A DNA stretch of 53,689 bases from Prorocentrum cordatum (taxonomy: Eukaryota): the NCBI GenBank assembly GCA_963575745.1, contig CAUYUJ010000299.1, forward strand, positions 62,001 through 115,689. Reading direction: 5' to 3'. The notes under the pieces are model-generated. The model did no database searches and had not been told where the DNA came from. It was given only the letters and a program-made list of their open reading frames with translations. The position numbers and the translations under genes are program-made. Position 1 is the first letter of the stretch. The number at the start of each line of letters is the position of its first letter. Of this stretch, positions 10,767 through 46,595 are shown piece after piece.

Positions 10767-10798
10767 CCCAGAGGTCTGGAAGGACTGTTTTTTAGTCC
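10767..10798 (+). repeat. Left terminal inverted repeat
   Basis: CCCAGAGGTCTGGAAGGACTGTTTTTTAGTCC. Confidence 0.93.
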
Positions 10799-10920: not shown

Positions 10921-10978
10921 TTTGAGCCAAGATGGCCAGTGGATACACGATCGTGCACGCACCTTCTTGAGCCATAAC
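10921..10978 (-). other. Two tandem DinoSL-like relics near the left end of the transposon
   Basis: The minus strand reads GTTATGGCTCAAG and then GCCATCTTGGCTCAA (14/15 to the DinoSL core). Confidence 0.55.
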
Positions 10979-11928: not shown

Positions 11929-13720
11929 TCATCGGCTCCTCTGGCCGCGAGTCCTCCTGCGCCTCCTCCGCCGCCTGCCTTCTCCGCCTGGGCTCTTGGC
12001 CACGACCCGCGCTCCTTGGCGCAGTCCTTGCTCGCTCGTCGGAGCGCCCCTGGATGAGTCGGTCCTCGGCGTACCTCCTTTCACCAGCGATAGTGATCCG
12101 TTGTGCCACCTGACTGTGATGCCATCCTCCGTGATGGCACTGATGTTGCCCGTCTTGCCTTTGAAGGCGACGTCGTCGCCGACGCAGACGTGGCGCTCGA
12201 ATCTGTGCACGAGGCCGCCCTCGTGGGAACAGATGCACGGCCGCGTCGAGCAGAGACGGGAAGCAAGGTGGACGTGGGCGACGGGGGGAGGAGGATGATG
12301 AGGAGGAGGAGGAGGACGGAAGAGGATGAATGGGGATGATGGGGGGAGGTGGAGGGGGAGGGGGAGGCGGAGGAGGAGGAGGAGGAGGAAGAAGAGGAGC
12401 AGGATGATGAGATGGAAGGGGGGAGTGGATGAGGAGACGGAGGAGGATGACGGGGAGGACGAGGAGGGTCAGGATGAGGATGCGGTTGGTACCGATCATC
12501 GATTGTCACCGCTAACGGTGAACATCGATGAGTGTCGGTGACCACCGCCGTTGTGCGATGGACGGGGATGCAGCGCGAGCGAGGGTCCTGCGCATCCGCT
12601 GTCCTCCTCGGCAGCTTCCAGCAGTCTGGCGGCACCTTCCCGCGCCTCCGCACCCACTCGCCGCCCGTGTTCCTCTCCAGGAGCAGCTCGGCGGCCTGCT
12701 CAGCCTAAGAGGAGAGAGGCGAGAGGAGGGCAACACATAAGGAACACGCGAGGAGGGATTGATGACTCCAACCGTGTAGTCGGGGTAGGTGTAGTCGGAG
12801 CTGTGGCTGGAGCCCTCCACCTCGCTCAGCGCAGTGCCTCCTCCATGGGCGCCCTCGCTGTACTGGCTGCTGCGCGCCGCCTCCGCCGTCTGCATGGGCG
12901 TGCTCCTTGGCGCACGGCTCCGACCACGCTGTCCAGCATCGTCCGACACAGGCACCACCGTGCGTACCGAACGCCTGGAGCTGCTAGCAGGTATCTCTGT
13001 CGGACTTGGCAGCTCAGTCGGAGTGGGTATCTGAGTCGGACTGGACGGCGGCAGCCTCGACGCGGGCTCGGCGCGGCACCCCTCCGATTTCACCTCTGTC
13101 GACAACAGGGGGCGCATAGAGGAGGAGAAGGAAGCGGGTGAGGATGCGGATGATAAGGATGAATTTGAGGAGGCCGATTACACCGACGAGAATGAGGGAT
13201 AACGAAGATTATCAGGACTAATCGGAACATTACTAGCATATGACAATGCGAGGAGGAAGAGGACGAGACGGATTAGAATGACGGGGATGACCTCAACGTC
13301 GTCGTCGACGGTCGCCGCCAATGCCATCTGCACGTCCAACAAGTATTGCCGATCGAGCATCTCATCGGTCTCGGCCACTAGATCCTCAGTTGCCGTGTCC
13401 ACAGCGACTAGTTGTCTCCTCTGCCTATCTTTCTGCATGCCGATCAGCTCGCCGCTCAGAAGACGTTCTCGTAGTACTGCTTCGCGATGCTGATTGGCCG
13501 CGGTCGCCATCGCCTTGGCAGATCGCCGCGTGTCCTCCTCAGCCTTTGCCATGTAGATACGCTCCATGCGCTCTGCCCGCCTGGTGTCGCGCTCCTCCTG
13601 CTCCCGCTCCCTCTTCCGTGCCCGCAGCAGCTGCATTGCAGCCTCGAGGCGATCTGCGTCGACGGCGCTGGCGTCGCCGTCCACGTCCACGATGTCTGAT
13701 CGCCATGTCGCCCGCGCCAT
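11929..13720 (-). CDS. Transposon cargo gene D (~385 aa): coiled coil, low-complexity linker, C-terminal SH3/KOW-like beta barrel. Exons 13720-13292, 13093-12773, 12704-12588, 12219-11929
   Basis: All four exons join in frame at G|GT or G|GA donors and AG|G acceptors (DDVE|VKSE, PDYT|AEQA, ADAQ|GGLV). VGDDVAFKGKTGNISAITEDGITVRWHNGS resembles an SH3-like fold. The true start and end are uncertain. Confidence 0.6.
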
Positions 13721-15067
13721 CCTCCGCGGCGTCGTGCTCCTCCTCATCCTCCTCCTCCGATCAGCGCTCTCACCATCGTCACGTTCTCGGCGGCGGCCTC
13801 GACTCTCGCTCCGCCGCCTAGCCCTCCTGCCTGTGGATGAACGGGGCTGGGTGGGTATATAACGGGGGTGGGGAAGAGTGGTATTGGGATGGTGAGTGAG
13901 AGGATGCCCACCTTCTGGCCGAGAGCCAACCACGCTGGCGCTGACCAGGATGAGCCCCCGCCCGCTGTGGCCAGATGGCATTCGCAGCGGTGCCCCCCGT
14001 CTCCACGCGTGGCGGGGGGATGCGCCCGAGGCGCTCGAAGCCCAAGTGGCTGTGGGGGCAGCGGGTGGGATCCCACGACCGTCCCTTTCGACGTGATCGA
14101 CAGCCCCCTCCTCCTCCCTCCTCGTCGTCGGTGTCCTCATCGGCATCCGTGCCATCATCCCCCCTCGTGCTCATCTTCCCACATGCCTCCTTCATTCCCC
14201 GTCATCTGCACCCCCACCTCCTCCAGGCCGTCACGTGCTGGACATATGTCGGTTGCGACCCCACGCGCACGCCCCCCCGTTGCAACCGAGCCAGACCCAG
14301 GGAGTCTGCGGAAACACGGCTGGCCTGTGACGGGCTACGATGGCGATGAGGTTGTTGATGGTGGTAGTGATGATGGTGGTGTTGGTGGCGCGCATGTTGA
14401 TGATGTTGTTGATGATGATGGCGATGGCAACGATAATACATATGCTAATGTTGAGTGTGATGGGTACGATGCTGGTGTTGGTGATGCCAATGACGATCGT
14501 GATGATGGCTGCGTTGCTGATGAAGCTGCTGAATGTACACATGAGGATGTTGATGTTGATGATGATGGTGATGATAATGATGATGGCGGTGAGTGTGATA
14601 CCGATGGTAGTGGCCATGATGATGACGATGCGGGGATGATGGGTTGATCAGGAGCCCGATGATGTCTGGCCAATAGAAATAATTCCACCCCCAGGGTCGC
14701 GCGACGGTTACTGCTGCACGGGAGGAGCAGCATATAAAAGATAGTGGTGACAGGGAAGAGCAGGAGCCCCATCACTAGGGTTAGGCCTGATTGGGGCGAT
14801 GGTGGCTGGAGGGTGGACAGGGGGGTGACATGCGTCCTATGTGCGCCAGACTTGTCGGTGTGCTCTAGCATCTACGTCAACATGTGCATGCGAGCGAACG
14901 CTGTCGGTGATGTTGGCCGACCTGTCATCTGCGATTGTGTAGTTCACGTGTGATATATAGTGTCCGTATACTAGTGATGCGACGCGGGTCATTGGTGCGT
15001 CTGTGTCTAACAACCCATATCCATGCAGCCCCCGACAACGTTCGCCCGCCCGAGACACCCCCAAACC

Positions 15068-16429
15068 TCAGCGCGCGCTCATGGAGCGCCCGCTGTCAGA
15101 CAACAGAACGCGAACCACGATGTGCGCCAACATGGCGCAGACGTCGCTCGGGTAGTGCGCAGACGAACTCATGGCAGACCTGCGGCCGTTGTACCACCCC
15201 TTCTTGCTCCACCCAGTCGCACCAGTACTCTTGAACCTACGGCCCACTGGAGCTAGTGGGCGAGCGCGGTCACCCAATCTCGATTGCGCATCCTTCTTAG
15301 ATTTGACAAGCTGGCGTAGAGCTGCATCGTCACCCGTAGCCCACAGTACTGTTGGTTTCAGAGTAGGTGCTCCCCAGCCTCCCATCCAGAAGAAGTATCG
15401 TTTAGCCTGGATTCGGATCATTGCCTTGGCAACGGCTGCGTCGTGAAAGTACATGGAGCCGAGCGGCTGCTCGATCGCGACGTAGACGCCCCTACTCGTC
15501 GCCAGGAAGACGATGTACGACATGCAGGTGATGACACCACAACGCGCGACCGCCACAGTCCCTAGACTCGGAACTGCACGAGCTCATCGACGTTCACCGT
15601 GTTCGGTGATCATCGGTGAGCTTCGGTGAGCCCTGTCCCCCGTCCCCCTTCTGTACGTGTAGATTAAAACCAGACCCCACACTGTGCACATTTATTTACC
15701 ACATACATTGCTATCTACATAGTGTGCGTGCCCCCCGAGACGTGTTCAAGTCCGCCCGCAGACGTGATGTACGCCGTATAGTTAGCTTGGCGCACGTCAC
15801 GTCTCGAAGTGTCCCCCTCAGTGTTCTTGCGCGTACGTTTGGTGTGTCCAGCTGCTGCCCCTATCCACGTGCTGCACTGCGGCGCCATGTGGCAGACGCC
15901 GTTAGGTACCACAGTGCGCACAATGTACAAGCAGTAGAGGAGACCCACCTGTGGCCATATGCAACCATCTCCCACCATATACCATGAGGATGAAAGGGGT
16001 AGTTAACACGGGTGGGGGTGAGCTTGTTGCCACGGGCGATGGCGAGATGGGAGATGCACATGTTGACGAGGATGGCGGGGAATATGGATGACGATACACG
16101 GGTGAGTAATATGATGGTGTGATGGATGGTGTGATGATTGTCTACCCTTCGTTTACTATCCCAGGTGCAACCAACGTGTAGATATCCTGATGTGGCCCGT
16201 CGCACTTGTCGTACGTCAGCGCCCTGTACCTCAGTATCGAAACACAACGGGACGCTTCGCCTCGCCCTGAGAATACTTCCAGAAAGGCGGTGGTGCGTGG
16301 GATCGATGGCGCGTGGTCAAGTAGAAGGCGAACTGATGCCAGCAGCATTCGCCCACCATGCTCCAGAGTTGTGTCCTCTACCACCCCTTCAGTCCGAAGG
16401 CGAGCAGCTCCATCGACAGCCCGCGCCAT
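15068..16429 (-). CDS. C5 cytosine DNA methyltransferase-like protein (~298 aa). Exons 16429-16172, 15948-15764, 15521-15068
   Basis: Motif I FLEVFSGRG, YD/QDI (motifs II-III), catalytic motif IV APQCSTW, motif VI-like IEQP, GAPTLKPT and terminal SAHYP, in canonical order. Exons join in frame, but the last acceptor reads CAT instead of CAG. Confidence 0.85.
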
Positions 16430-16494
16430 ACCTGCACCGTGATGCGGAAGGCCAGCGCGCCCCAGACCGCAACGCTGCAGGAACACAGTGATGC

Positions 16495-19400
16495 TCAGAT
16501 AGGGCCAGATATAAGCACGAGACATTCCTGGCCCACGAAGTGTTCGCAGATCTGTAACTGAGCTTGCAAGTGAAACAACGAAAACACCCTGGTCTCGAAC
16601 CGCATTCTGTGTGCATACACTGCCACGTCTCTCAGCAGTGAATTTAGTGACTCGTCCAGGAAACACGTATACATCTTCGGCGACCCATGGTCGCTGATCC
16701 TGGAGCAGTGTTTGCACGCCGAGGTGAACTCGGAAACCTTCACGCCCAGACTAGCCCACGTCCAAACCTGACCCCACCCCCCTGGCAGACACGGCTGGTG
16801 CATCGTCCAGGCATTTCCGATGTCGTTGTTTTGCTTGGGGGAGACCGAGCTGCAGGACAGCGACCTGCTTGGGGCGACCGCGTCTAGCGGAACATTGCGC
16901 GTGCGATGCATGTCGCCGATGCGCCTGCTATTCGCAACACCCAGTAGTGGTCCAATACTCGGTCATCGTCAATCCTCCTCGTGGTAGCCTTCTACGTTGC
17001 TGTGCACCTACATCGTCCCGCCCAATCCCCGCCCCGCGCCCAACGCCCACGCGCCCTGTCCGACTTCCCCTCCCCCCGCCCAGCCGCGCCCGCAGCCATG
17101 GGCACAGCGCGCATGTTGGGGGGGGGGAGGAGTGTGGGCGTTAGGCGGGACATGGATGGGGCGACGCAGTGAGCGAATGCGCCCAGCATGATCGACAGAG
17201 GACCTAGGCGAGGCGAGGAGAGGAGGGATGTGGGAGGGAAGGAGGGGAGGTATGAGGCTGGGGAGGGAGGGAGGGAGGTAGGGAGGGCGGGTTTGATTTG
17301 AACTATCCGCTAACAAAAAAAACGCACGCCTGTAGATCAGGTGGCACACCAGGTGGTGCCTAGGCGTGTACGCGATGTGAGCCAGGCGGCAGCTCTTTAG
17401 GTGCACCCACATTGCCATCAGCATCTTGCGCATACTCTCAGGCGGCACGACGCACGTATGGGTGCGCATCTCTTCCAGAAATGTCCCCAACGACAGCCCA
17501 GCATCAATCAGGGCGTCGCCATACGCAGTCCGACCACCGTGTTTACTAAGCAGCTCGTTGGCAAATGGCACCAGGTATCCTATCTCGGCGGCCTTGAATG
17601 ACACAGAGCACCCAGGATGCATCCAGTCCTGCGGTCGGGGGGGAACTCGCTCGAACACTTGCAGACGTTGCGTCCCACTCGTGCCTGTCGACCCCCATGG
17701 CTCTTTATATCCCGTGTCCCACCGTGTGCATATGCAAACGCGTGCGCATCCATATACATGTATGTATATATCTATAGACATATAGCAGGCGCGCCCACGT
17801 CGTAGTTTCAGACTCGACCGCCGGCCTGCGTAGTTTTACACAGAACATGTAGGTGCATGTGTGCTACGTAAACCTGCATGCATAGTATGTGTAGCGGCGG
17901 GCTTGACTTGCTATGTGCACGCACGTGTCCACCGTGTGCGTGTGTCTGTGCGCATATACTAATACCATGGGTGGGTTATCTATCTCTCTCTCTCTATCGC
18001 GCTCTCTCTCTCTCTCTCGCGTGTGTATCTACCAATTCCACTCCGACATATGCACCCCCGCACCGCCATAACCACCCTACTAAAACCATGTGGCGCCTAC
18101 CCCCCGACATGCGCTGCAGTCGCGCGCGCACGCGTTGGGCAGCACCCGCACGCACGCCACATTGGAAACCAGAGCGGGGTCCTGCAGCGACCGACCCTTG
18201 CGGTCCCCAAGCATCTTGAGCGTGAACGTGCCGACCCTGATGGAATGTGGTATGCAGTGTTGTTCTTGCCACAACTGAAGATCAGCGTTTATGCGGCGGG
18301 AACCAAGCTCGAGAACGTTGTCCAGCGGGCCGCCGTACTTGAACGGATTTCGCAACACAATTCTCCACAATGCAGCGCTCACAAACCGTTGTAGTGGTCC
18401 GTAGTATAGGCAGTGCAGCGAATCTATGGCGAGAGACCGAACTGGACTGGTTCCCAAATGCCTACATAATAAAGGGCACCTGTGGCTCATCGGGTCCAAA
18501 ACTTTGCCACCGACGCCAACTGTTTCCCTCCAGAACGTGATCGTCAGTGGAAGCCGCACACGTTCCAACCAATGTGTGTCCATCAGAGACACAGATGGCT
18601 CTAACCTGTCTCCTGCTTTGAGGGCGATGCCGTTCACGATAAGGTCAGTGTCCAGAACTCGCCCGCCATGTGACTTCTTGGTTTTCCTAAACTTCAGCTT
18701 CGCCAGCAAATCCCTCCGATCTCTGTCGTGGCGCAATCGCACGTGCACCTCGCACGTCTCGCACGCTGTAAAGAACTCGTCATGTGTGCGAAGTGGCCAA
18801 GGCATCCCGTCGACTAGGTCATCGTAGGAGCCGTGCACCTCGTCCAAGCACATGTGGCAAAAGGAGCAGGGATTGTACAACGACGCCCAGCTCGACATGC
18901 CCAGTGTTTTCGAATGCTCGGACCAATCGCCTTTGATCCACACCAAGACCCCCTTGAACGAGAGTTCCATATGCGAGCCCAGTGGGTCGTTCGGTGGCCA
19001 GTCTGATCCGTCGTGCCGCCGCGGCGGTCTGCGTCCTCTTGTAATCGCTTCCATCTGCCACCTCGCCACCTCCAAGTGCGGGAATATGGTGCACCATCCT
19101 TTGCACCCGCACGCGCACATGTCCGATGAGCGGGTCACCGACATCAGGTGTCTCTTTCCCGACAATAAGTTGATCGCCCATATGCCAAGGGTGCTGTCGG
19201 TGCGGCCAGAAGCCGCGGAAATGTAGCGCACCCCGTCTAGATATATGGCGAGTGGAACGGGGAGGTCGTGCCCGTTGGCCACAGCGTCCACCACCACAGG
19301 ATGAGTGGTGTAGCAGGGGAGATCCAGCACGCACGGCTCGCGGACGTCAGGGTCGGAGTTTATCAAATCGAACGTAGCAGGCTCGGTCCGAATCTCGGTG

Positions 19401-19778
19401 TCGAGCGATTCGTACACACACTTCACAGGTACGGCTCTGATCGTGCGTGCAGGCCGCCTGTTCAGATTTACAGGCGTAGGGACACAGATGAGATCCGACG
19501 GTGATGGCAATACCCTGGACAGTAAATCTTGGTATTTGCCACTCTGTTTGCCTGGCGCCATGGCGTACTGTGCAAAGTTTGCGCCTGGCGTGTTCGCCTT
19601 GTCTGCATAATAACAGCTGGCGTAAATCTGTTGCTGTAAGTTTACATGGCGCGTATAAGCGCAGCACCATCCGTAGCAGCTCCGACCCTGCATCGCGTTC
19701 GCATTGGTCACTCTGTGCGTATAGTCTGGGCTTCCTGCATGCCGCGTCGGTGCTTCGGCAATGGGCGCGCTTGCCCAT
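16495..19778 (-). CDS. CMC (CACTA/EnSpm, Mirage, Chapaev)-like DDE transposase (~700 aa) with one frameshift near 19614. Exons 19778-18182, 17628-17330, 16699-16495
   Basis: LAIYLDG (D1), WIKGDW (D2), CSFC, IDSLHCLYYG, PRHHLVCH and GSPKMYTCFLDESLN (E). In-frame splices SLQ|DWM (GA-AG) and IYR|ISD (GC-AG). Restoring 2 nt (ctgTGttat) joins the MGKR...DLRQL N-terminus. Confidence 0.88.
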
Positions 19779-20546
19779 GGTTGCAAACTGCTTTGGGCCG
19801 TGGTATCATTTACAGTGTGGGTGCAGCATTGCTGCGGCGCACAGAAAACATCGGGGGGAGGGGCGGTGGTGGGAAGGAGAAAGGTATGAGGGCGGACGAG
19901 GGAGGGCGGAAGGACAGGGGGGAGCGAGAGTGGGGGAGCAGCGGCATCACACATGAAGGCATCCACATCGGATACCACATTCTTTAGAGCGTCTCGACAC
20001 ACACGATCGAAGTATCAGAACGTGCACAGCGCGCAACCGACGTGCACCACGCGGGTGGGGCACGTTGCACATGATTGGTGTGATACAGCACGTGCATGCG
20101 CATTCGCAACGCAATGCGTTCCCGTCGGCAGCACGGGCGGGCGGTTGCCCCTCGCCTCGCCCCTTTACCTGATCGGTGGGCCTTCGACCGAAGGTACTCA
20201 TTTGCAGCGGGGCACGTCTGTGTAGGAAACTCGGTGGCCACAGACTGCACATCTATATCCCTCCATCTCCCCATATCTCTGCATGCCGTTATACATCCAT
20301 CCCCCCATCATCGGCATCACCATGCTCCTCATGATTATCCTCGCCTCCACAAATTACTCGCCCTCATCCGTCTCGTTCGTTCTGATGCGGTCATCTTCGC
20401 TACCTTCGTTATCTTCGCACTCTTGCGCCGCCCAGTGACGCCGCTCGCGCCCCGCAACTCACCTGCAGATACGCAACGCACGCTTTCGAGAACCCTAGAA
20501 ACCTACACAGACAGCCATCTGAGGCTCGCCGAGAGACACCCCATGG

Positions 20547-20810
20547 CGCTCATCGGTGCTCATCGGTGAGGGGCTCATCGGTGCGGTGAGCTCATCGGCT
20601 CCGACCCTGTGATTTCACAGGTATGACGCTCATCGGTATCGATGAGCTCATCGGGGCTCATCGAAATCTCATCGGTGCCGGTGAGCACCGGTGAGCGCCG
20701 GTGAGCCCCCGATGAGCGCCGGTGAGCACCGATGAGCACCGGTGAGCGCCGATGAGCACCGGTGAGCGCCGATGAGCGCCCGATGAGCACCCGTGAGTCT
20801 CGATGAGCCC
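20547..20810. repeat. Array of 10-bp CCGRTGAGCR units in two opposing orientations
   Basis: CTCATCGGTG copies on the left and CACCGATGAG/CACCGGTGAG copies on the right, located between gene B and the transposase. Confidence 0.88.
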
Positions 20811-20963
20811 TACAAACCAGATATCCCATTGAGATTTCGGGCAACCCATCAAATTTTTCAAACAAACTGCGAAAATCCAATCGACCACCAAGATTTCCCC
20901 GCTGGATGGCACATTCGGTCCGAACCACTGAAAGTGTCAAGGCTGATGCAGCCTCGCGAGCAC

Positions 20964-23360
20964 CTACGCTGCCCTCCCCGACCTCTGGCTCTTCTGAGCC
21001 TTGGCGTCCAGCTTGCACTTGTGTACCTGCAGCAGGCACGTCACCAGGCCCGCGATCTTGTGGAGCTTGGGCTCGAGGTTGATGGCGTCCTGCAAGGCCG
21101 CCGAGAAGGGTCCATCCCCGAGCTCCTTCCTGAGCTTCCCAAGGTCGTTCGTCAGGATGCGCGACAAGTTCTCCTTGGTGTGCACGTGCTCCTGCAGCAG
21201 CCTGTGCTGCTTCTTGAGGGCCACGCCGTCATCGTCCTTCAGTGCCCACTGCCACGATTTGTCCGACTCCATGCCAGAGAGGATCGTCATCACATCCGAC
21301 ATCGTCGTCGAGTACATGCTGATGCGCTTCTTTGCATCTGCTGCCAGTTCCTTGATGGGGTCCTTCTCCCTCGGCGTCTTCGCCTTCTTGGGTTTCTCCT
21401 TGCCGCCTGCCGCCTCCTCACCTGCAGGCTGCGCCGCCGCCGCCTCGGCCCCAGCCTTGCCCGCCGCCGCGGGCGCAGCCTTCCTCGCCGCCTCCTCGGC
21501 CGCAGCTGTCGTCGCTGCCACGGCCGCGCCCTCCTGCTGCGCTGCCTCGCCAGCGGTCGCCGTGAGCGAACTCGGCCTCGTACCCGCCGTCACTGGGTCC
21601 TGGCTGGGATGACATACGGGGGCCGCCTGGCCCGACCCTAACCCCCCGCCAATCGTCTCAGATCAGGCTCAGGCAGGGGGGCGGGGAACGACGTTGCATG
21701 AGGCAGAGGATACGGCGACGCCAGAGGAGGACAGAGATGGGGATGATGAGGATTCATAATTCGGAGCAGGCATGAACGATTTAGGAGGGGTGTCCACGTG
21801 TCCTGCCCGCCAGCCGCGATCGCGGCCGTCGGCGCGCCTCCCGCGCAGCCAGTCGATGCCTGGAATTGCATGACTGTATAACGGGGGGGGGATCCACAAT
21901 GAATCTCCAAGGGCTCTTCCGACCGATTTACGATCCTGGGCGAAGTCGTGAGACGCATGCGGGGTCGGGGCACGCGGTGGGCGACGATGGGGAATTGACG
22001 AGGGGGGTGGGGGAGGGGATGGCAAGGTGAGAGGGGGTAGTATGAGTTGGAGTTGAAAGATGAGTTGGAGGAGGTGGAGGGTTAAGAGGAGGTTGATGAG
22101 ACGAGTTGGTCTATGTTCACACCCCTCAACGCCTGTTGACCCTCCAGGCGGCGATCCCGCATGACGTCGCTCTCGATGCTGTCCGACGTCCACTGCTCGT
22201 ACTTAGACCACGCCTCAGTGAACTCAGTGTTCACCCCCTCCGTCACGTACAGTGCCCGTAACGACCTGGTGGCGCTGTCGAACACCACCCATGGTGGACC
22301 TAACTGCATCGCCTGTGTAATGTACCTCACTGCCTGTGGGGCATCCGTACAGCTGGAAGTGGTGGCATGTAGTTGCCGATGTAACTTTGCACGTGGATAT
22401 GTAACGTTGTACATGGTTATGGATGTGGTTGCATATTGCTGCGCACTAGTGGTAGAACAGGTCTCGGTGTTGGTTGTGGTTGCGAGGAAGCGAAGTGAGA
22501 GGTGGTTCTTGACGTAGGCTGAGGTGGTTATCGATGCTCGCCGCCAGCGGCAAGCGGGGATGGTTGCATGGGCGGGAGGAGGGTGGCCGAAAACACTTGC
22601 ATTATAACTACAGTTGTACGGATTCGACCCACTGTGCCTGCATCCAGCCCAACTTGCCCCCGCCCTCTTTGTGGACGATGCGGCCTAACGGCATGTACTG
22701 CCCCTTGCGCCATTGCGACTTGACCAGGGTAGTGATCTTCTTCTTCACGACGACGTAGTTCTCGAACGTCTCCTTGGCCCAGTCCTGCCTGAACTGCATC
22801 TGCGCATCCTGGTTGCCCTTCAGGGCATCATAGTCCTTCTTCATCTGCGGGTTGGCCGCCTTGCGCCGCTCGAACCTCGAGGCGAGGGGGTTCCCAGCAG
22901 CAGCCCTCGCTGGAAATCGAAAGTTGGTCGACTCCGCCGCGCGCCACATAGCAAGCTCACCGAGTGCCTTCGCGTCGAAGCCTGTCGTGTCGATCGAGTC
23001 GAGCCGCGATGACTCTGCAACGGGCTCCACTCTGCCGTACCCCACCTGGTCGGTCGCCCTCGGCATCTTCACGCACTGCTCCGCATCAGCAAGCCCCGCA
23101 GCCATCGGAGTCAACTCGTCCCGACACACGCCCCTGGCGTCGAAGATCGCGCGCATGTCCGATGAGTGGAAGAACTCGAGCAACATGTTGTTGATCCCGA
23201 TCTCGTCCACAGTCGCCGCCAGTCGTAGCCCGTCCTCGAACCTCAAGAGCTGCGCCTCGATCGAGTGCTTGTGGCGCAGGACTCTCTTGGGCGGCGTCTC
23301 GAACGGCGTCTGTGGCCGCAGTGACATCCAATATTCCGAATCACCATCGATCATTGTCAT
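20964..23360 (-). CDS. Transposon cargo gene B (~519 aa), unknown function. Exons 23360-22638, 22333-~22133, 21599-20964
   Basis: Complex, protein-like ORF segments (FRQDWAKE...HKEGGG; WVVFD...LYV; helical Lys-rich C-terminus) join in frame at CAG|GC donors and CAG|G acceptors. Confidence 0.75.
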
Positions 23361-23429
23361 TCACCTCCTTGACCTCTCCTCGCCAGCATGACAGCCACCG
23401 ATGTTCACCGCCAGCGGTGGTCACCGATG

Positions 23430-24542
23430 CTAGCCAGTTGGGCGGGAAGAGGGCGGCGAATGCACACTGGAGTATCGACAGTGCTCAGGAGGATTGGAAG
23501 TGCGATGGCTGTGGAGATGGGAGGGAGGAACGACTCGGGCGAGCACCTCCACACGTGCGGGGAGTGCGCCACTATCTCCGCCACATGCCAGGGGTGCACT
23601 CCCAGTCGCCACTCCTGCAGCCGCCTCCGCGCCATCCTCACCAGACACACCTCCAGCCTCGTGGCCGCGCGGTGCCGCCTCGCCGCCTGCAGGCGCGGAC
23701 ATGCTGCCCCCGTCCGCGATGTCATCTTTGAAGCAGCGACGAAAGAGCTCGGGGTGGTCCGATGGGTTCGGCTGACGATCAGGATATTGACTGCCACCTG
23801 CGCCGCTGAGTCGGGTGTCCCAGCTGTGGCTCGCCTCTGGGTGCGGGGGGGTGCACGGAGCGCCCCTCGTCTCAGCCCGCGACTTCGTCAGGGTGCGCTC
23901 CATGTCCTCCTCCTCCTGCCTCGCCTGCTCCTCATCCTCAGCCGCGGCCGCCTGTGACGCAACCAGCGCTGCCTTCATGTCGGGGTCGTCGGATGCACCG
24001 CCTGCCTCCTCGGGGCTGTCGTCGATGATGATGGGCGTGGGGTTGTCAGTGGCCGCATCGTTGCCCTCCTCGATGCCGTCGGCCCGCTGCTTCTTCGATG
24101 CCGATGCCGATTCAGCTGGTGCGTCACGCTTCTTGGACAGCTCGCTCACCTGCATCATGAGATCGTTCATCTGCTGCGACTGCGTCTGGATCAGTTTCTG
24201 CATGGACTCGTTCAGCTGCCGCGCCTCCTCCAGCTGCCTGGGTTGACTGTCTGCGCGATCCTCTGCATCGCGCACTGCCCTCCACCTCGCATCCGCCTCC
24301 GCCCGCACGGCGCGGGCGCTCTCCTCACCCCCGCGATCAGCTGGCAATGGGACGGCATCGACATCGGACGTGTGCCTCAACTGCGCCAACGGAGCGGCGT
24401 CGTCGCCATCGAGCTGCGTGGCCGCGTTCACGGCCAGCGTCGGCGCCTGCTGCGCGGCGGCGAGCGCGGCAGTGCCATCGGCCACCTGGGTGGATGGTGC
24501 GGGCTCGGAGTCCTCCCTGGGATCACAGGCCGCCCCCGACAT
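23430..24542 (-). CDS. Transposon cargo gene C (~370 aa): acidic, disordered protein with a coiled coil and two UIM-like helices
   Basis: Single ORF; LNESMQKLIQTQSQQMNDLMMQVSEL coil; DDPDMKAALVASQ and EEDMERTLTKSRAE resemble ubiquitin-interacting motifs. Confidence 0.6.
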   Translation of the reverse strand: MSGAACDPREDSEPAPSTQVADGTAALAAAQQAPTLAVNAATQLDGDDAAPLAQLRHTSDVDAVPLPADRGGEESARAVRAEADARWRAVRDAEDRADSQPRQLEEARQLNESMQKLIQTQSQQMNDLMMQVSELSKKRDAPAESASASKKQRADGIEEGNDAATDNPTPIIIDDSPEEAGGASDDPDMKAALVASQAAAAEDEEQARQEEEDMERTLTKSRAETRGAPCTPPHPEASHSWDTRLSGAGGSQYPDRQPNPSDHPELFRRCFKDDIADGGSMSAPAGGEAAPRGHEAGGVSGEDGAEAAAGVATGSAPLACGGDSGALPARVEVLARVVPPSHLHSHRTSNPPEHCRYSSVHSPPSSRPTG

Positions 24543-25470
24543 GTCCCCGCCGACGCGGCTGGCGAATGCGCGGCCGATCGGTGTAGTGCGGAGTGGGCTC
24601 CGCGGTACAATGCCCCACTCAACACGGTGCATCACGTCTCGGGTAACTCAAACGGCAGCGAAGCTCGATCGAACCGATTCGATATCGATATGCCGACACA
24701 TGATGGTGACGATGTACCTCACACCGTGGCATGACCCTACCTAGTGGTGGTAATGTTGGTGGTGCGTATGGGTGGTAGCCGATGTGGTAGTACACTGGTG
24801 GGTCTACATTCACACCCGACCAACCGTGTGGAACGATCGTGTAAGATGTGTTGGTACAGTGATGGTGTCACGTGGTATGTATTGTGGGGGTGGTGGTGGG
24901 ACATACGTGCTGTCCATGCTTCTATACCATTCGTACCGAACTCATGCGGCATCTGGTCTATGCCCAGAGGGACCACGTTTTGCTGATGTCGCACAGCGCT
25001 CAGCGATAAACAGTCAGGCGTCCCGTGCAAGGTGCGCAGGATGCACGCCTACACCACGAGTGACCGAACTCATGAACTGAGTATAGAGAGGGATGGGGTG
25101 GGGACAGGGCGACCATGAGGAGGAGGATGCTGATGAGGCGGATGATGGTGATGAGGAGGAGTATGCGGAGGATGTCTCCACATAATAACATATAAGGTGA
25201 TGGTGAGGAGCAGGAGCAAGGGCGGGAGAACTGTAACAGCGCGATGGTGCAGCTGTACTTGCGTGCCTGCCGTGTTGGCCCGCTCTCTAGTACGTTGAAC
25301 TCCGTAACCGCCGACGTGCACACCCTTCGTGCATTGGCAAGTGTCCCTCAACCAAGACCCAAGACACCCCATCGCCCTGTCCAACGCAAACCCGCAACAC
25401 ATGCCAATACACGCACACACATCGCCTATACGCCCCTCTAGAGAGCAAGCTCGAGCCTTATGTGGCTCTA

Positions 25471-27293
25471 TCAAAAGTCTGGAATCTCAGTGCATCTGGG
25501 GGCCCTGGGACGCTGCGGCTGCACAGGCTGACTATCGGACAACGGAGCTGGACCGACTGGCGTCGGCGCCGTCTGCGACGCGACGGGCTGCTGGGCCGCA
25601 TCTGACGTGGGGGACTGGATCGGGTCCGCCGACGTCGGCTTCTTCGGCGTCTCCATCGCCTCGCCCGATCTGGGAGCCTTGGATGCATGCTCGTGGGCCG
25701 CATCCGATGCATCCGACGACGGCCGCTTCATGGCCGCACCTCCTGCCGCCGCTGGCCTCCTCCGCGTCGCCTCCTCGGCCTCATCCTCATCCTCGACCTC
25801 GGGCGGACATGTCTCCACCGTCACATCCTTGGTCAGGAAGGCTGCGATGACCGACTTCTCTTCGACTTCTGTGTCCGATATGGGCGACTCGTCCATGTCA
25901 TTGGTGGCCGCACCTGCATGGCTGCCCCCGCCTGCTCCTTGAACTGCGCCGACCTCGGCGGCCACATCTGAACTGGCCGCATCGCCAGCCTCCTCCTCTT
26001 CCGCTGCATCCTCATCCTCCTCAGCCCCATGCTCCTCATCCCCTGCTTCATCTGCAGCTGTGTCGTCCTTGACAGGCTGCCCGCCCTCGGCGGCCGCGGC
26101 CTCCTTTGCAGCCGCAGGCTTTTTCGGGCAAGCTGCCGCTGGCCGCTTCCTGGCGCCGCGTGCGTCATGAGCCGCGTTCTCCATGAGCCACTGCCTCTTG
26201 GCGTTCTCGAGGTTCGCCTTCGGCTCCCCCTTTGCGTACCTGGCACCCAGGCTCGTCAGGAACTGCGTCGCGTTCGACTTGTCAGCATAACCGACGAGCT
26301 GCATAACCTGTGTCTTTTTCCCCCTGACGGCCAACTGCAACCACTCCTTGTCGTGCTTCTTGACCAGCTTGACCTGCAGGGCGGAGTCCTCGTACGGTAT
26401 CTGCCACAACACTGCATCTGACACACCAGTTGCAGCCGCCAGTGTATCAGCTGCCGACGTACCAGGCACCTGATACGACGATCAGCCAAGACGAGCGTCA
26501 TCGGTATTCATCGATATCTCACTGGTATCGGTGAATGTCGGTGAGGCGTCGGGTCGGCCGATCGTCGCGATTGGGGGACGTGGTGTGTATTGTGAGCTCG
26601 TGCGCCTTCCACGTCATGGGGTCGGACTCGTCGGAACCTGGCCACGTAGCCACGAGCCGTTTGCTGTCACTGTATACACATGCTGTCGCGTAGTCCGGCT
26701 GCGCACTGGGATTGTCCACTGGTACTCGCCACGCCGCCTGGGAGAGTCAGGATATGCTACCCCCGCCCCCTCCAACCAGCGCACCGTACACGGATGTATC
26801 CATATCATGGCTGCTGCGATCGACCGATGGGGTACCCCCGACGCTGACCGAAGCTAGTGAATGCCGATGCGAGCACATGGCCCCCATAATCCCCCGACCA
26901 GTCGATCATCGCACCATGATTGGCACTCATTCATTCAGTTTGAACGTGGCGTGACTGAGCGAGTCGATACGGACGTAAGCCTACCCTCATCGTTCGAACC
27001 GATCGCGCGTGCTCACTACCCGTTGACATCTCAAGCGATTTGGGCAAGGACAGCGCGAGACGCTTCGAATAACACATGCGAACTCTAGGCTGATGGTGAT
27101 GATGAGCACGACGAGACGAGCAAAACCTTGTGTGATATCGCACGCATGGCGAAACGGTCACGAGCGACGATATCATCTAGTCGATCGTGTCTGGGTTGTC
27201 GCACGTGTTCGAGTCAACCGATGTGGATGAGGGTGATGCTGACACTGATGATGATGAGGATGATGATGATGATGATGCTGATGCTGATGATGC

Positions 27294-30091: not shown

Positions 30092-30123
30092 CCTTACAGA
30101 CCACTCTTAGTCATGTGTGGGAT

Positions 30124-30142
30124 CTCAGCCAAAACGGCTGCG
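30124..30142 (-). other. DinoSL-like relic 32 nt upstream of the gene A start codon
   Basis: Minus strand CGCAGCCGTTTTGGCTGAG versus CGTAGCCATTTTGGCTCAA (15/19). Confidence 0.5.
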
Positions 30143-30454
30143 CACCGTTCTCCTCCCCTTCCTCAGCACAAGCATTTCTTTTCTAATCCTCTCTTGTCTA
30201 ATCCTCCTGCTCCACCCTCTCTCCGCCCCCCTCTTCCCCCGCTTTTTTTGTTTTTGTTTGAAGAAACACTGCGGACAAGGGAAAGGAACGCGTAACGCTG
30301 TGGACAAGACGGTCGAACGCTTGACGCGCACGGGCTATTAAGAACATGTCTGCAATTTATATGTAAAACAACACTTTTTCTGCACGCAGAACGCATCGGG
30401 ACTATTTATAGTCCTGGGTATTATTTTTAGTCCCGATGTTTAGTTAGCACAGCA

Positions 30455-32411: not shown

Positions 32412-33000
32412 GTTAAGCGAAGGCACGCGTGCACTAAACGGAGAAGGAGGAAGAGGAGGAGGAGGAAGGAGGACGAGGACGGAAGAAGGACAATGATGAA
32501 CTCTTTCAATGGCAAAGCGGCCACGCGCACCACCCTGATGGCGCGGGTCCGGCGGGACGCCGCGCCGCCCGCGCACGCGCGCAGTGGCGCGCGCGCGTTC
32601 TGGCACGCCCTGCTGCCGCACGGCCCGAGAGCCGAGCGGAGCTGGGTGCACAGGGAGCAAAGCGGGGTGGGTGGGCCCCCGAGTCCTGGCTCGATCTCGA
32701 GCCCACGACTACGGACCCCAAATGGCTATGGCAAAGCCCCCACTTCCCTACGCTGAACCTGCAGTCTACCAACATAACAGACTATACAAGTTAAGCGAAG
32801 GCACGCGTGCACTAAACGGAGAAGGAGGAAGAGGAGGAGGAAGGAGGACGAGGACGGGAGAAGGACAATGATGAACTCTTTCAATGGCAAAGCGGCCACG
32901 CGCACCACCCTGATGGCGCGGGTCCGGCGGGGCGCCGCGCCGCCCGCGCACGCGCACAGTGGCGCGCGCGCGTTCTGGCACGCCCTGCTGCCGCACGGCC
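32412..33000 (+). repeat. B2-spacer-A2-B1 terminal repeat block
   Basis: 32412-32625 matches 32790-33000; 32676-32789 is identical to 46482-46595. Confidence 0.95.
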
Positions 33001-33400
33001 AAAACCAAAAGAACGCAGCCGCGCGCGGGCGAAAGGCGCCCGAGCGCGCGCGACCACTGGCCTGCAAGCCTGAGGCCTTCCTGGAGCGGGCGCCAGGCCG
33101 CCCCGGCTGGGCAGCGCCCTGCCGGCGGCGTGCAACGCGCGCCCGAGCCGGCCCCCACGGCCTCGCCCAGGCGGGGGGGCTAAACGCTCCCCAGGGCCGC
33201 GCGTCGCCGGCCCGCCGGCGCGGAATCGCGCACGCGAAAAGCGCTAGCCGCGCGCGTCGCGCAGGACGCGACTCAGTACACGCAAAGAACGAGCGCGCGC
33301 ATGCGAAAGCGCACGCGCGAGCTGGAGGCGCAAGCTGGCTGCAGCCCAGTGGGCGCCACGAGGCCCGAGCAGCCCGTCGCTCCCCCCGGTCCTCCTCCTT

Positions 33401-36400
33401 CTAATCCTCGTCGTCGGGCGGCTCCTGTGTGGCGGACAGCGCGCGGCCCTCGATGCCAGTGCTGCCGGCGAACATGCCAACGTAGGTCGATCCGCTCGCC
33501 CCCGTCGTCGCGCCCTTCGTCGGCGCGCCAGTCGCCGCCGCAGTCAGCACCGTGGTCGCCGTGGCGGCCAGGGCCGCTGTCGACGCCGATGTCGGCGCGA
33601 CCGTCGGCGCCGCTGTCGGAGTAGCCGTCGGTGTCGTGACCAGTTCAGCCATCGGCGAACCGAACCGTGCATCTGCAGGTGCAGCGGCTAGTGCAACCGT
33701 CGTCGACGCTGTCCAGGCGGTTGTCTGTGCCGCGGCCAGGGCAACAGACAGACGACCCATCGGCGCTGCCGTTGGTGCAGCAATCGGCGAAGCCGTAGGC
33801 GACGAAGCCGGCGCAGCCGCCGCCGCCGCTGTAAACGGGGCGGCCCGAGCCGCAGCCGGAGCAGCGGTCGGTGCCGTAGACGGCGCGGCCGGCGGCACAG
33901 CGGTCAGCGCCGCGGTCGGCACGGCGGCCAGAGCTGCCGTCGGCGACGCTATCGGCGCGGCCGTCGGCGCCGCCGCCAGCGCGGCTGTCGGAGTGGCTGT
34001 CGGCGCCGCGGTCGGTACACTCGTCGGCGCTGCTGTCGGCGACGTTGTCGGCGCGGCCACCGTAGCCGCAGTCGGTGAGGCGGTCGGGGCCACCGTCGGC
34101 TCAGCTGTCAGCACCGCAGCCGCTGCCGCCGTCGGTGCCGCAATTGGCGCCGTTGTCGGTGCCACAATTGGCGCGGCTGTCGATGCTGCAGCCGGCATGG
34201 CGGTCGGCGTAGCTGGCGGCGCCGCAGTCGGAGCCGGAGTCGGGAAACCCGTCGGGGAGCTAGTCGATGTCCCCGTTGTCGCCGAGGTCGCCGTGGCTGT
34301 CAGTGCCGCATCCCCCGGGGCCGCGGTAGCCACCGCCTCTGGCGCGAGACGCCCGTCCCACATGGGCGGGACCGCCGCTGACCCGGAGGCTGGTGCGCGC
34401 CGGGCGCCCCTGGCGGGCGAGGGCGGGCGGGCATCCCTCGGGGCCGCGGCCGCAGCCGCCGCTGGCGTGCGCCGTCCGTCGCACATGGGTGGGCCAACGC
34501 CCGCCCCTGAGGCTGGTGCGAGCCGTGCGCCCCCGGCCGGTGCGAGTACGGTGGCGCCCCCCGGGGCCGCGGTGGCAGCTGCCTCCGGCGTGCGCCGCCC
34601 GTGAGGTCTGGGCTGCCTGGAGGCCGCCAGCGCAGACGCCAGCGCCGCTGTCGGTGCCGCCGTTGGCGCCTCGGCTGGTACAGCGGTCGGCGCATCTGTC
34701 ATTGCAGCTGTCGGTGCCGTGGTCGGCGCAGCTGTCAGCGAGGCCGTCGATGCAGCCGTCGGCGTACCAGCCGTCTTATGACCCGCCAGCGCAGCCTCGA
34801 TCTCCTCGGCAGCCTTTGGGCCGCTGTCCAGAACGTGCCAGTCATCCGAGGAGCCCTCCACGAGCGCGCCCTTCAAGTTCACCGCGCCAGCGCCGCTGTC
34901 GGCGCCGCGGCCGGTACCGAAATCAGCGCTGCAGTAGGGGCCGCTGTCGGCGCCCCCGTCGAGGATGCTGTCGGCGTGCCTGCTGGTGCCGCAGTCTGCG
35001 CGGCGGTCGATGCCGCAGCCAGCGCAGCGGTTAACGCCGCTGGCGGGGTGGCCGTCAGTGCCACCGTAGGTGCCGCGGTCGGCGCGGCCGCGCCCGCCGC
35101 CCGAGACGCCCCCCACGGGCACGCCCTTGCGGGTTGCCTCGTAGGCGCCGCCGTCGGCGCCGCGGTCAGCGCCGAGGTCGGTGCAGCAGTCGGTGCCATT
35201 GTCGGCGTAACTGACGAGGCTGTCGTCGGCGTGGCTGTCGAGGTAGCCGTCGGCGCGGCCGCCGGTGCCGCAGACAGCGTGGCTGCAGCCATTGGCGCCG
35301 CTGTCGGTGCCGCAGCCGGTGAGCCTGTCGGCGGGCCATTCGATCAGCCCGCTGGTGCCCTCGTAGGGCTCGCAGTCGGCGCGGCAGTCGGCGCCGTGGT
35401 TGGCGCAGCCGTCGGCGCCGCAGTCGGCGCGGCTGTCCGCGCCGCAGGCTGCGCCACTGTCCCTGCCGATGCCGTCGCAACTGCCGACGTCGTCGCGGCT
35501 GCCCACTGTGCCGCGGTCAGCTCGGCCGTCAGCGCCGCAGGCATAGCCGTCGGCGTACCTGTAGGCAAGGCGGTCAGCGCCACGGTCGTCGCAGCTATCG
35601 GGGCCGCGGCCGGCGTAGCTGCAGTTGGTGCCGCTGCGTCTGTAGCTGCCAGCCCCGTCGCTCGGGCGCGTGCCATAGGCACCCCGGGCCTTGACCCGCT
35701 GCCTCACCTTCGTAACGTGAGCGACAAGGCCGCCCTCCACCGGAGCGTTCCCAACCGAGAGGCCGCAAGCCTTCGCGACGTCGAACGCCGTGTCACCGCT
35801 GCTGACCAGCTCGCACTCGGCGTCCGGCACGGGCTCGATCGCCAGTGGCCTCACGCTCGCATCGGCGCTGTCCACGACGGCTGCCCTGCCAATGCCGCGG
35901 TTGGCGGAGACGCCAGTGACGCCGTCGGCGCGGTTGTCGGTGCCGTAATCGGTGCCGCGATCGACGCCGCCGTCGGCGCCGCTATCGGCGCGGCGGCTGC
36001 CGGTGCCGCAGCAATCGCAGGCGTCGGTGCCGCCGTTGGCGGTGCTGGCGGTGAAGCCGTGGGCGCGGGTGTCGGTGCAGCTGTCAGCGACGCAGTCGGC
36101 GCAGCTGTCGGCGAGGCTGCCGGTGCTGCAGACGGCGCGGGTGTCGGTGCTGCAGTTGGCAGAGCCGCCGGCGGAGCTGTAGGTGCGGGCGTCGGTGCAG
36201 CTGTCGGCGATACCGCCAGCGCAGCTGTCGGCGATGCTGTCGGGGCAACGGTTGGCGCGGCTGTCCGCGCCGCAGCCGGCGGGGCTGCTGACGCCAGCGT
36301 CGGCGCAGCTGCTGGTGCGGCTGTCGACGAGGTGGTCGGTGAGGCCGTCGCACGTCGCCGCGGCCGTGACCATGGAGGCCGGTTGCTCCCCTATCGGACC

Positions 36401-46409: not shown

Positions 46410-46481
46410 GTCCGCACACCCGCTCCCCAGAGCTGGCGGTGCAGGGCGCTGCGGTTTTGGCCGCCCCGCGGCCCCCCGGGA

Positions 46482-46595
46482 CCCCCGAGTCCTGGCTCGA
46501 TCTCGAGCCCACGACTACGGACCCCAAATGGCTATGGCAAAGCCCCCACTTCCCTACGCTGAACCTGCAGTCTACCAACATAACAGACTATACAA
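46482..46595 (+). repeat. A1 terminal repeat (114 bp)
   Basis: Identical to 32676-32789. Confidence 0.95.

Follow-up and report, generated by a model that had tools for sequence, protein, structure and literature searches.

Closely packed genes of a putative Prorocentrum cordatum DNA transposon and their possible resolution by spliced-leader trans-splicing

The window analysed here is a stretch of 53,689 nucleotides (nt) from the dinoflagellate Prorocentrum cordatum (assembly GCA_963575745.1, contig CAUYUJ010000299.1, positions 62,001 to 115,689). All the genes of the stretch under study lie on its minus strand, as read from the list of open reading frames (ORFs) and from the sequence, and two of the gaps between them measure 65 and 69 nt. 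The original prediction explained this packing by one polycistronic precursor. It would be resolved by trans-splicing of the dinoflagellate spliced leader (DinoSL), a process that Zhang and colleagues (2007, cited in PMC10666404) reportedly described in dinoflagellates. The best explanation, to which we give a probability of about 0.55, is that the stretch forms the central, gene-carrying part of a large dinoflagellate DNA transposon, that its genes are resolved by the leader and that its close pairs come from a shared precursor.

The element would carry four or five co-oriented genes with spliceosomal introns, namely a gene A, possibly a gene C, a gene B with its part D, a DDE transposase similar to RAG1 and Transib, and a small gene similar to C5 methyltransferases (MTases). 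These genes would be expressed in the way the host expresses its own. Each ORF would receive the 22-nt leader at an AG located a few to about 100 nt before the start codon, and each messenger RNA (mRNA) would be polyadenylated shortly past the stop. The products would be monocistronic mRNAs with short untranslated regions (UTRs). The leader acceptor of a downstream gene would then fall inside the 3' region of the gene upstream. A single precursor might even span all 11 kb.

The transposase and methyltransferase genes and the gap between them

The last exon of the transposase stops at 16497-16495 and the ATG of the MTase gene is at 16429, in the context GTGCAG/GTATGG (the slash marks a splice point, proposed or modelled, here and below). 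The gap is 65 nt, exactly as first described. Likewise, the 69 nt between the stop of C (23432-23430) and the ATG of B (23360) were read again from the sequence. The stop of C is only a predicted one, so the spacing between C and B is perhaps 69 nt. Judged by sequence comparison, the transposase-MTase junction is the only one with homologue support on both sides. Because only 65 and perhaps 69 nt separate their members, the two close pairs very probably derive from a shared precursor, and we infer that they are co-transcribed.

Relatives of the transposase were taken from metagenome contigs. Among 549 pattern matches, 170 encode a relative of the transposase, and 80 of these loci were kept. 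All counts given below out of 80 refer to them. The exon models come from tblastn of relatives (P0001, P0002, P0009, P0031 and P0179) onto the window, together with reading of the sequence.

A word search gave 27 homologues for exon 1 of the transposase. Exon 2 is matched by 18 of the 80 loci, and 24 of them have long ORFs whose C-terminus corresponds to exon 3. Since the relatives end where exon 3 ends, the stop at 16495 is taken as real, without fusion to the MTase. A fusion of both proteins by cis-splicing was tried as a candidate and discarded: the frames lead to an early stop, and the relatives' transposases terminate at the same point. Residues D122, D225, E228 and D331 are invariant in 16 sequences, together with clusters of cysteines. 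The AF2 model of the transposase (pLDDT 76.7) had no significant match in Foldseek (best E 0.023). With VIA-align, the top 28 rows were all RAG1 or Transib, none of them with Z of 8 or more. The best row has Z 7.3 and a root-mean-square deviation of 7.5 over 287 aligned residues. These model comparisons give modest support to a DDE transposase fold like that of RAG1 and Transib. Pfam found no transposase family in the window transposase or in 16 relatives, and no relative of the transposase was found in viral contigs.

The largest exon of the MTase gene, exon 3, has 177 relatives at E of 0.001 or lower. The full-length relative P0031, of 320 amino acids (aa), aligns with all three exons of the window. 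Its Met16 lies opposite the window ATG, which makes 16429 a credible start. The family conserves the blocks EVFSGRG, APQCSTW and IEQP. Hallmarks of C5 methyltransferases are the AdoMet-binding FxGxG, the catalytic Pro-Cys, an ENV-like motif and a Rossmann-type fold, and we take the three blocks to resemble motifs I, IV and VI of these enzymes. The AF2 model of P0031 (pLDDT 82.7) gave 24 Foldseek matches with E of 0.001 or lower (best 2.6e-5, with a low TM of about 0.3). Among the matches listed, all were DNA or tRNA cytosine methyltransferases, namely DNMT1, DIM2, MET1, ZMET2 or DNMT2. This resemblance suggests a C5-MTase-like gene, from a small family with proteins of about 300 aa. Pfam gave no match for the three exons (E up to 10) or for 20 full-length relatives (E up to 0.1). 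A PDB sequence search with exon 3 returned nothing below E 0.45, and a word search found no match of this exon to longer proteins. A fragment of the MTase with 99% identity is present in other public records.

At the junction of MTase exons 2 and 3 (15561-15760, minus strand), the obvious GC donor and the only AG acceptors do not agree in phase. The gene would have either about 12-14 extra residues compared with the family or an unusual splice site.

Spliced leaders in relatives of the element

We counted as a DinoSL relic a DNA-encoded leader pattern with at most 3 mismatches. Altogether 13 such patterns were found, spread over 12 of the 80 loci and always on the strand of the transposase; about 0.004 matches are expected by chance (an estimate). 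The relic lies at most 900 nt upstream of the transposase match in 10 of the 80 loci; when only the 62 loci that extend 400 nt or more upstream are considered, 8 have it. The distance from the leader to the first ATG ranges from 0 to 103 nt (n = 14 relics). At least 95% of the match sits in one open frame in 67 loci, so most relatives are intronless, unlike the window copy; a single ORF of at least 550 aa is present in 52. Several of the relatives' retrocopies also show short A-runs about 20-120 nt past the stop.

One locus (L067, 349-2510) contains an intronless transposase copy headed by a leader relic. Its flanks of TA repeats and its end about 120 nt after the stop argue for an origin from a monocistronic mRNA. 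The copy has the appearance of a DNA-transposase mRNA that was retrocopied into a TA repeat. More generally, the leader-headed relatives go back to monocistronic mRNAs, leader-capped and with short UTRs, that were copied into DNA. A second locus (L029, 1-8934) carries three same-strand ORFs of 343 aa, 575 aa (B/D-like) and 715 aa (the transposase). The first two have each their own leader relic, at 574 and 3100, both upstream of the transposase. This locus seems to resemble a processed version of the window element. Its first ORF presents no significant similarity to A or C, and its second none to C. The ORFs beside leader relics had no Pfam match apart from a sub-threshold one to prothymosin.

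These relics are strong, if indirect, support for the addition of the leader to genes of this kind of element. For the window copy itself, we infer both the addition and the choice of the AG.

A relaxed scan inside the element, with up to 8 mismatches, gave 10 leader matches against 7.4 expected. Degenerate leader-like strings were noted at 10921-10941, about 10960-10975 and 30123-30143 on the minus strand, and at 1207-1221 on the plus strand. Only two, near the element ends and on the gene strand, stand out; they differ from the leader at 5 and 6 of 21 positions, where we estimate about 0.2 such matches per strand by chance. Neither precedes one of the genes discussed here, and the idea of more degenerate relics inside the element was dropped. 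An A9 run follows the string at 10921 about 35 nt later.

Gene content of the unit

The features are collected in Table 1. Candidate ends of the element are at 10767 and 30486, where imperfect inverted repeats of about 32 nt were found; the flanks have at most TA in common. The introns show GT, GC or GA donors and AG/G acceptors, in line with the dinoflagellate splice statistics of PMC10666404. The same source gives mean intergenic distances of 7-26 kb for dinoflagellate genomes, which makes the packing of the element far denser than that of host genes.

Table 1. Features of the element in the window (. in the strand column, no strand assigned)
Feature	Coordinates	Strand	Basis or remark
Gene A, last or only visible exon	25471..26469	-	frame opens right after TATCAG/G
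ORF after A, 100 aa	25073..25372	-	GC3 0.51, His/Pro low-complexity
ORF C, acidic, coiled-coil-like	23430..24632	-	GC3; 5' two-thirds coding-like
C-B gap, 69 nt	23361..23429	-	read from sequence
Gene B exon 1, ATG 23360, GT donor after TGG at 22629	22629..23360	-	GC3 0.82, homologues, tblastn P0179
Gene B exon 2, acceptor CACAG/GCAGTG, 3' boundary approximate	22115..22333	-	tblastn P0179, GC3 frame switch
D, probably last exon(s) of the B gene	20964..21662	-	GC3 0.84, D-like ORF in L001, P0185 colinearity
10-nt repeat array, two inverted halves	20545..20808	.	motif counts, repeat families, RNA fold
Transposase exon 1, ATG 19778, GA donor after 18182	18182..19778	-	homologues and tblastn
Transposase exon 2, acceptor CCGCAG/GACTGG, GC donor	17330..17628	-	tblastn P0001, P0009; 18 loci match
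Transposase exon 3, acceptor CTCCAG/GATCAG, stop TGA 16497-16495	16495..16699	-	P0009 residues 622-676 match
Transposase-MTase gap, 65 nt	16430..16494	-	read from sequence
C5-MTase-like exon 1, ATG 16429, motif EVFSGRG	16172..16429	-	P0031 residues 10-104; alignment A2
C5-MTase-like exon 2, acceptor CCACAG/GTGGGT, motif APQCSTW	15760..15948	-	P0031 residues 104-166, 52% identity
C5-MTase-like exon 3, motif IEQP, 5' boundary uncertain	15068..15561	-	177 relatives; P0031 residues 169-315
ORF after MTase, 51 aa	14840..14992	-	GC3 0.53

As a coding signal in the ORFs of the window we used the GC content at third codon positions (GC3). It reaches 0.71 in A, 0.73 in C, 0.82 in B and 0.84 in D, and it is 0.51 and 0.53 in the ORFs that follow A and the MTase. 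These last two ORFs had been counted as members of the unit. Their distances were correct: one starts 98 nt past A (stop 25473-25471, ATG 25372) and the other 75 nt past the MTase (stop 15070-15068, ATG 14992). They are probably not genes. In this GC-rich DNA, 38-58% of random positions are followed within 100 nt by the start of an ATG-led ORF of at least 50 aa, and 17-36% by that of one of at least 100 aa. Given the low GC3 and this high chance rate, the two ORFs give no evidence of extra cistrons.

The frame of gene A has a GC3 of 0.86 at 26400-26250. Its first in-frame ATG comes no earlier than about residue 59. The start codon is probably in an upstream exon, because the frame opens at an AG/G acceptor with no ATG nearby. 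C shows coding-like periodicity only in its 5' two-thirds, with no clear coding frame in its 3' third, and it had no homologue among the 80 loci by tblastn or blastp.

C and B share the reading frame, with in-frame stops between them up to the ATG of B. The gap between them holds five AG within its last 22 nt. It also holds an upstream ORF of 10 codons (23361-23392, minus strand), whose TGA overlaps the B start as ATGA. The ten bases before this start, AAGGAGGTGA, form a perfect string of the bacterial Shine-Dalgarno type, probably a coincidence.

Four homologues of B were found, one at 99% identity. By tblastn, residues 318-374 of P0179 (394 aa) match 22339-22169 with 61% identity. Since P0179 continues past the apparent stop, B runs beyond its apparent end at 22608 into a conserved second exon. 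D has a strong coding signal and no in-frame ATG near its 5' end. A D-like ORF lies upstream of the transposase in L001 (E 9e-12), likewise without an in-frame ATG. P0185, the single intronless 575-aa ORF of L029, matches B exon 1, B exon 2 and D in this order. Each match is weak (E 4e-6, 0.056 and 0.011, respectively), and a profile comparison of P0185 with D gave E 0.0018 at 15% probability. The colinear matches and the missing start of D make a single gene out of B and D likely.

Searches of A, C, B and D against the 80 loci (tblastn and blastp) found only D in L001 and the B-like ORF in L029. Pfam found no family for A, C or B, and for D only a sub-threshold TASOR PIN match (E 0.0047). A protein atlas search with B and with D gave no usable match. 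A public protein set under the name of a green alga, Pyramimonas sp., holds sequences 99% identical to the MTase exon and at least 90% identical to B (the entries concerned are P0028, P0182, P0001 and P0179), which suggests that the set may hold dinoflagellate sequence.

Outside the element, positions 33000-46500 of the window form a 13-kb block with 72-76% G+C. Both of its strands carry very long open frames that overlap and abound in repeats of Ala, Pro, Thr, Gly and Asp. Rfam gave no matches in the whole window.

Shared precursor, separate units and known systems

Two parts of the trans-splicing proposal had different outcomes. The addition of the leader gene by gene agrees with the relatives (10 of 80 loci), and the AG/G sites named for it are not supported as trans-splice sites. 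These sites do sit just upstream of three start codons: that of B (AAGGAGGTGA-ATG), that of the MTase (CAGGT-ATG) and that of the ORF which follows A (ACAGGGCG-ATG). Among the minus-strand ATGs of window positions 13000-27000, however, an AGG lies within 9 nt upstream in 45 of 283 (16%) and within 12 nt in 57 of 282 (20%). Three of the four named starts have an AGG, which is nominally unusual, with a binomial probability of about 0.014 at p = 0.16, for a tiny sample that was chosen post hoc and includes one non-gene. AG/G also stands at all five firmly inferred cis acceptors (A, B exon 2, transposase exons 2 and 3, MTase exon 2), and likewise at an uncertain sixth, that of MTase exon 3. In the dinoflagellates tabulated in PMC10666404, AGG acceptors make up 79.7-97% of introns, with 56.5% in one further column. 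Of 14 relics in relatives, 6 continue directly after the leader with C, 3 with G, 3 with T and 2 with A. Because AG/G is the cis-acceptor motif and G follows the leader in only 3 of 14 relics, a G after the AG is no pointer to trans-splicing. Amphidinium carterae is described as having an AG acceptor without a wider consensus and a flexible choice of the AG (Bachvaroff and Place 2008, PMC2488372). The 65-nt gap holds its last AG at 16433-16432, which would leave a leader of 2 nt, and another at 16476-16475, after a pyrimidine-rich run, which would leave 45 nt. The second AG is no less plausible than the AG that lies 2 nt ahead of the MTase ATG.

The number of separate cistrons was also set too high: the ORFs after A and after the MTase are probably not genes, and B and D are probably one. 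The unit has four or five genes, not seven.

Several observations weigh against the explanation that we favour. According to PMC2488372, A. carterae has 3'UTRs of 42-143 nt, spacers of 85-982 nt and 5'UTRs of 51-369 nt. The minima sum to 178 nt, far above 65-69 nt. The same figures also speak for a shared transcript: as 65 nt cannot hold UTRs, a spacer and an acceptor of this size, at least the transposase and the MTase gene must overlap in one. Neither short gap contains an A-run or the polyadenylation motif AAAAG/C (PMC2488372; here the slash stands for alternative bases). At a limit of 3 mismatches, the window is free of leader relics, and the genes of L029 are spaced by 1.5-1.8 kb. The MTase gene is present in none of the 80 loci, by tblastn and by a hidden Markov model of 90 relatives that matched only the window, so its pairing with the transposase and the addition of a leader to it are unseen elsewhere.

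The state of the copy points in the same direction. At 19622-19616 (minus strand), 7 nt stand in place of three residues of the relatives. Residues 6-36 of P0002 match 19715-19623 and residues 40-526 match 19615-18179 in another frame, and the N-terminal 52 or so residues of the transposase (from the ATG at 19778) are in a different frame from the remainder. Either the window transposase is frameshifted or the assembly is wrong at this point. This may suggest a decaying copy, perhaps a non-functional one. Finally, the repeat array between D and the transposase has the core CCGATGAG and gathers 12 of the 19 copies of this motif in the window, where 2.8 are expected per window. It is predicted to form an RNA hairpin of -163 kcal/mol (z -8.45). 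Such an inverted array may be a boundary between two units. Polycistronic transcription itself is under argument in dinoflagellates. Co-transcription followed by leader trans-splicing is presented as the standard, though debated, model (PMC10666404, PMC11453091), and the review PMC11453091, citing Beauchemin et al. 2012, says that polycistronic expression "appears rare".

In its strictest form, the proposal would make the transposase and the C5-MTase-like gene a true transposon-borne dicistron, with one precursor in which the leader is added at the AG 2 or 45 nt before the MTase start, within the presumed 3'UTR of the transposase. We hold this only tentatively. Two or more independent transcription units are an unlikely alternative. 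Transcription would start internally, for instance at or beside the conspicuous repeat array found precisely at the border of D and the transposase, and other genes might have starts of their own as well. The leader would still trim the mRNAs, and the co-orientation would merely reflect the assembly of the element. Similar short motifs occur upstream of A and inside the MTase gene, and polycistronic expression is apparently rare (PMC11453091). The little room for promoters, claimed at first for the whole unit, holds for the gaps of 65 and 69 nt and not elsewhere: the remaining junctions measure 0.8-1.3 kb and leave space for initiation. However, separate units leave the 65-nt gap between the transposase and the MTase gene unexplained. 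The array could equally be transposase-binding or structural, and no dinoflagellate promoter model exists with which to compare it.

The operon might also be largely an artefact of reading ORFs in a decaying, GC-rich and silent copy, with nothing to resolve. The frameshift, the two ORFs without coding signal in a sequence with a high chance rate of ORFs, the unclear 3' third of C and the missing start codons of A and D all fit this idea. We consider it rather improbable: B, D and the MTase retain open frames, high GC3 and conserved residues, other public records hold a B protein and an MTase fragment both 99% identical, the 65-nt junction joins two homology-supported genes, and the frameshift may be an assembly error. 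Alternative cis-splicing of one pre-mRNA into several proteins appears more doubtful still. The AG/G before B and before the MTase would be cis acceptors joined to a coding or non-coding exon upstream, as the motif at all five firm acceptors and in 79.7-97% of dinoflagellate introns (PMC10666404) would allow. A and D do begin at AG/G acceptors without an ATG, and C shares its frame with B. Nevertheless, transposase exon 2 joined to the MTase acceptor leads to an early stop, in-frame stops separate C from B up to its ATG, and the relatives of the transposase, B and the MTase are stand-alone proteins.

A leader-resolved element with close pairs from a shared precursor keeps our preference: a 65-nt junction of unrelated, homology-supported genes is hard to explain without such a precursor. 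This matters for the dispute between the usual model of polycistronic transcription (PMC10666404) and its apparent rarity (PMC11453091). If the dicistron were true, the cargo would be expressed without a promoter of its own, through the host trans-splicing. No intercistronic junction described in a dinoflagellate would be tighter, and the debated model would gain a compact test case present in many copies. The relatives show, in addition, that the genes of a DNA transposon family are processed like host mRNAs and often copied back from leader-capped mRNA. This links cut-and-paste elements with the retroposition that shapes dinoflagellate genomes.

In the spliced-leader operons of nematodes and trypanosomatids, intercistronic distances are about 100 nt or less, and leader trans-splicing is coupled to the formation of the upstream 3' end. 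The two short gaps in the window are of similar size. To our knowledge, dinoflagellates have only one leader type. Slamovits and Keeling reportedly described in 2008 retrogenes with DinoSL relicts, or "recycled" cDNAs. Such retrogenes are also attributed to Song et al. 2017, as cited in PMC11453091. The relatives of the transposase and of the B/D-like gene are alike in being intronless copies headed by a leader relic. In contrast, the window copy has introns in the transposase, the MTase gene and B, and no relic before its genes. It is the unprocessed, DNA-transposed form.

The maize transposon En/Spm (CACTA) produces TnpA and TnpD from one transcript. It is likewise a DNA transposon with several ORFs on the same strand, and here too one precursor may serve several products. 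The proposal for the window differs in relying on trans-splicing and not on alternative cis-splicing, and for its transposase a CMC-like superfamily is a proposal. Among dinoflagellate mobile elements, the Symbiodinium retrotransposons that carry DNA methyltransferases (de Mendoza et al. 2018, PMC5890265) also bear a gene like a cytosine methyltransferase. The window element is a DNA transposon, with a separate intron-containing MTase of about 300 aa that Pfam misses. With the co-oriented DinoSL arrays described in PMC2488372 it shares the single strand, the AG acceptor without a wider consensus, the short UTRs and, through its relatives, the leader relics. However, those arrays are tandem copies of one host gene, and the window joins unlike genes in a mobile element, with gaps of 65-69 nt, well under the ranges seen in A. 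carterae. Genes on one strand and trans-splicing of the leader are ordinary for a dinoflagellate locus; what sets this one apart is that two unrelated genes of a mobile element lie only 65 nt from each other.

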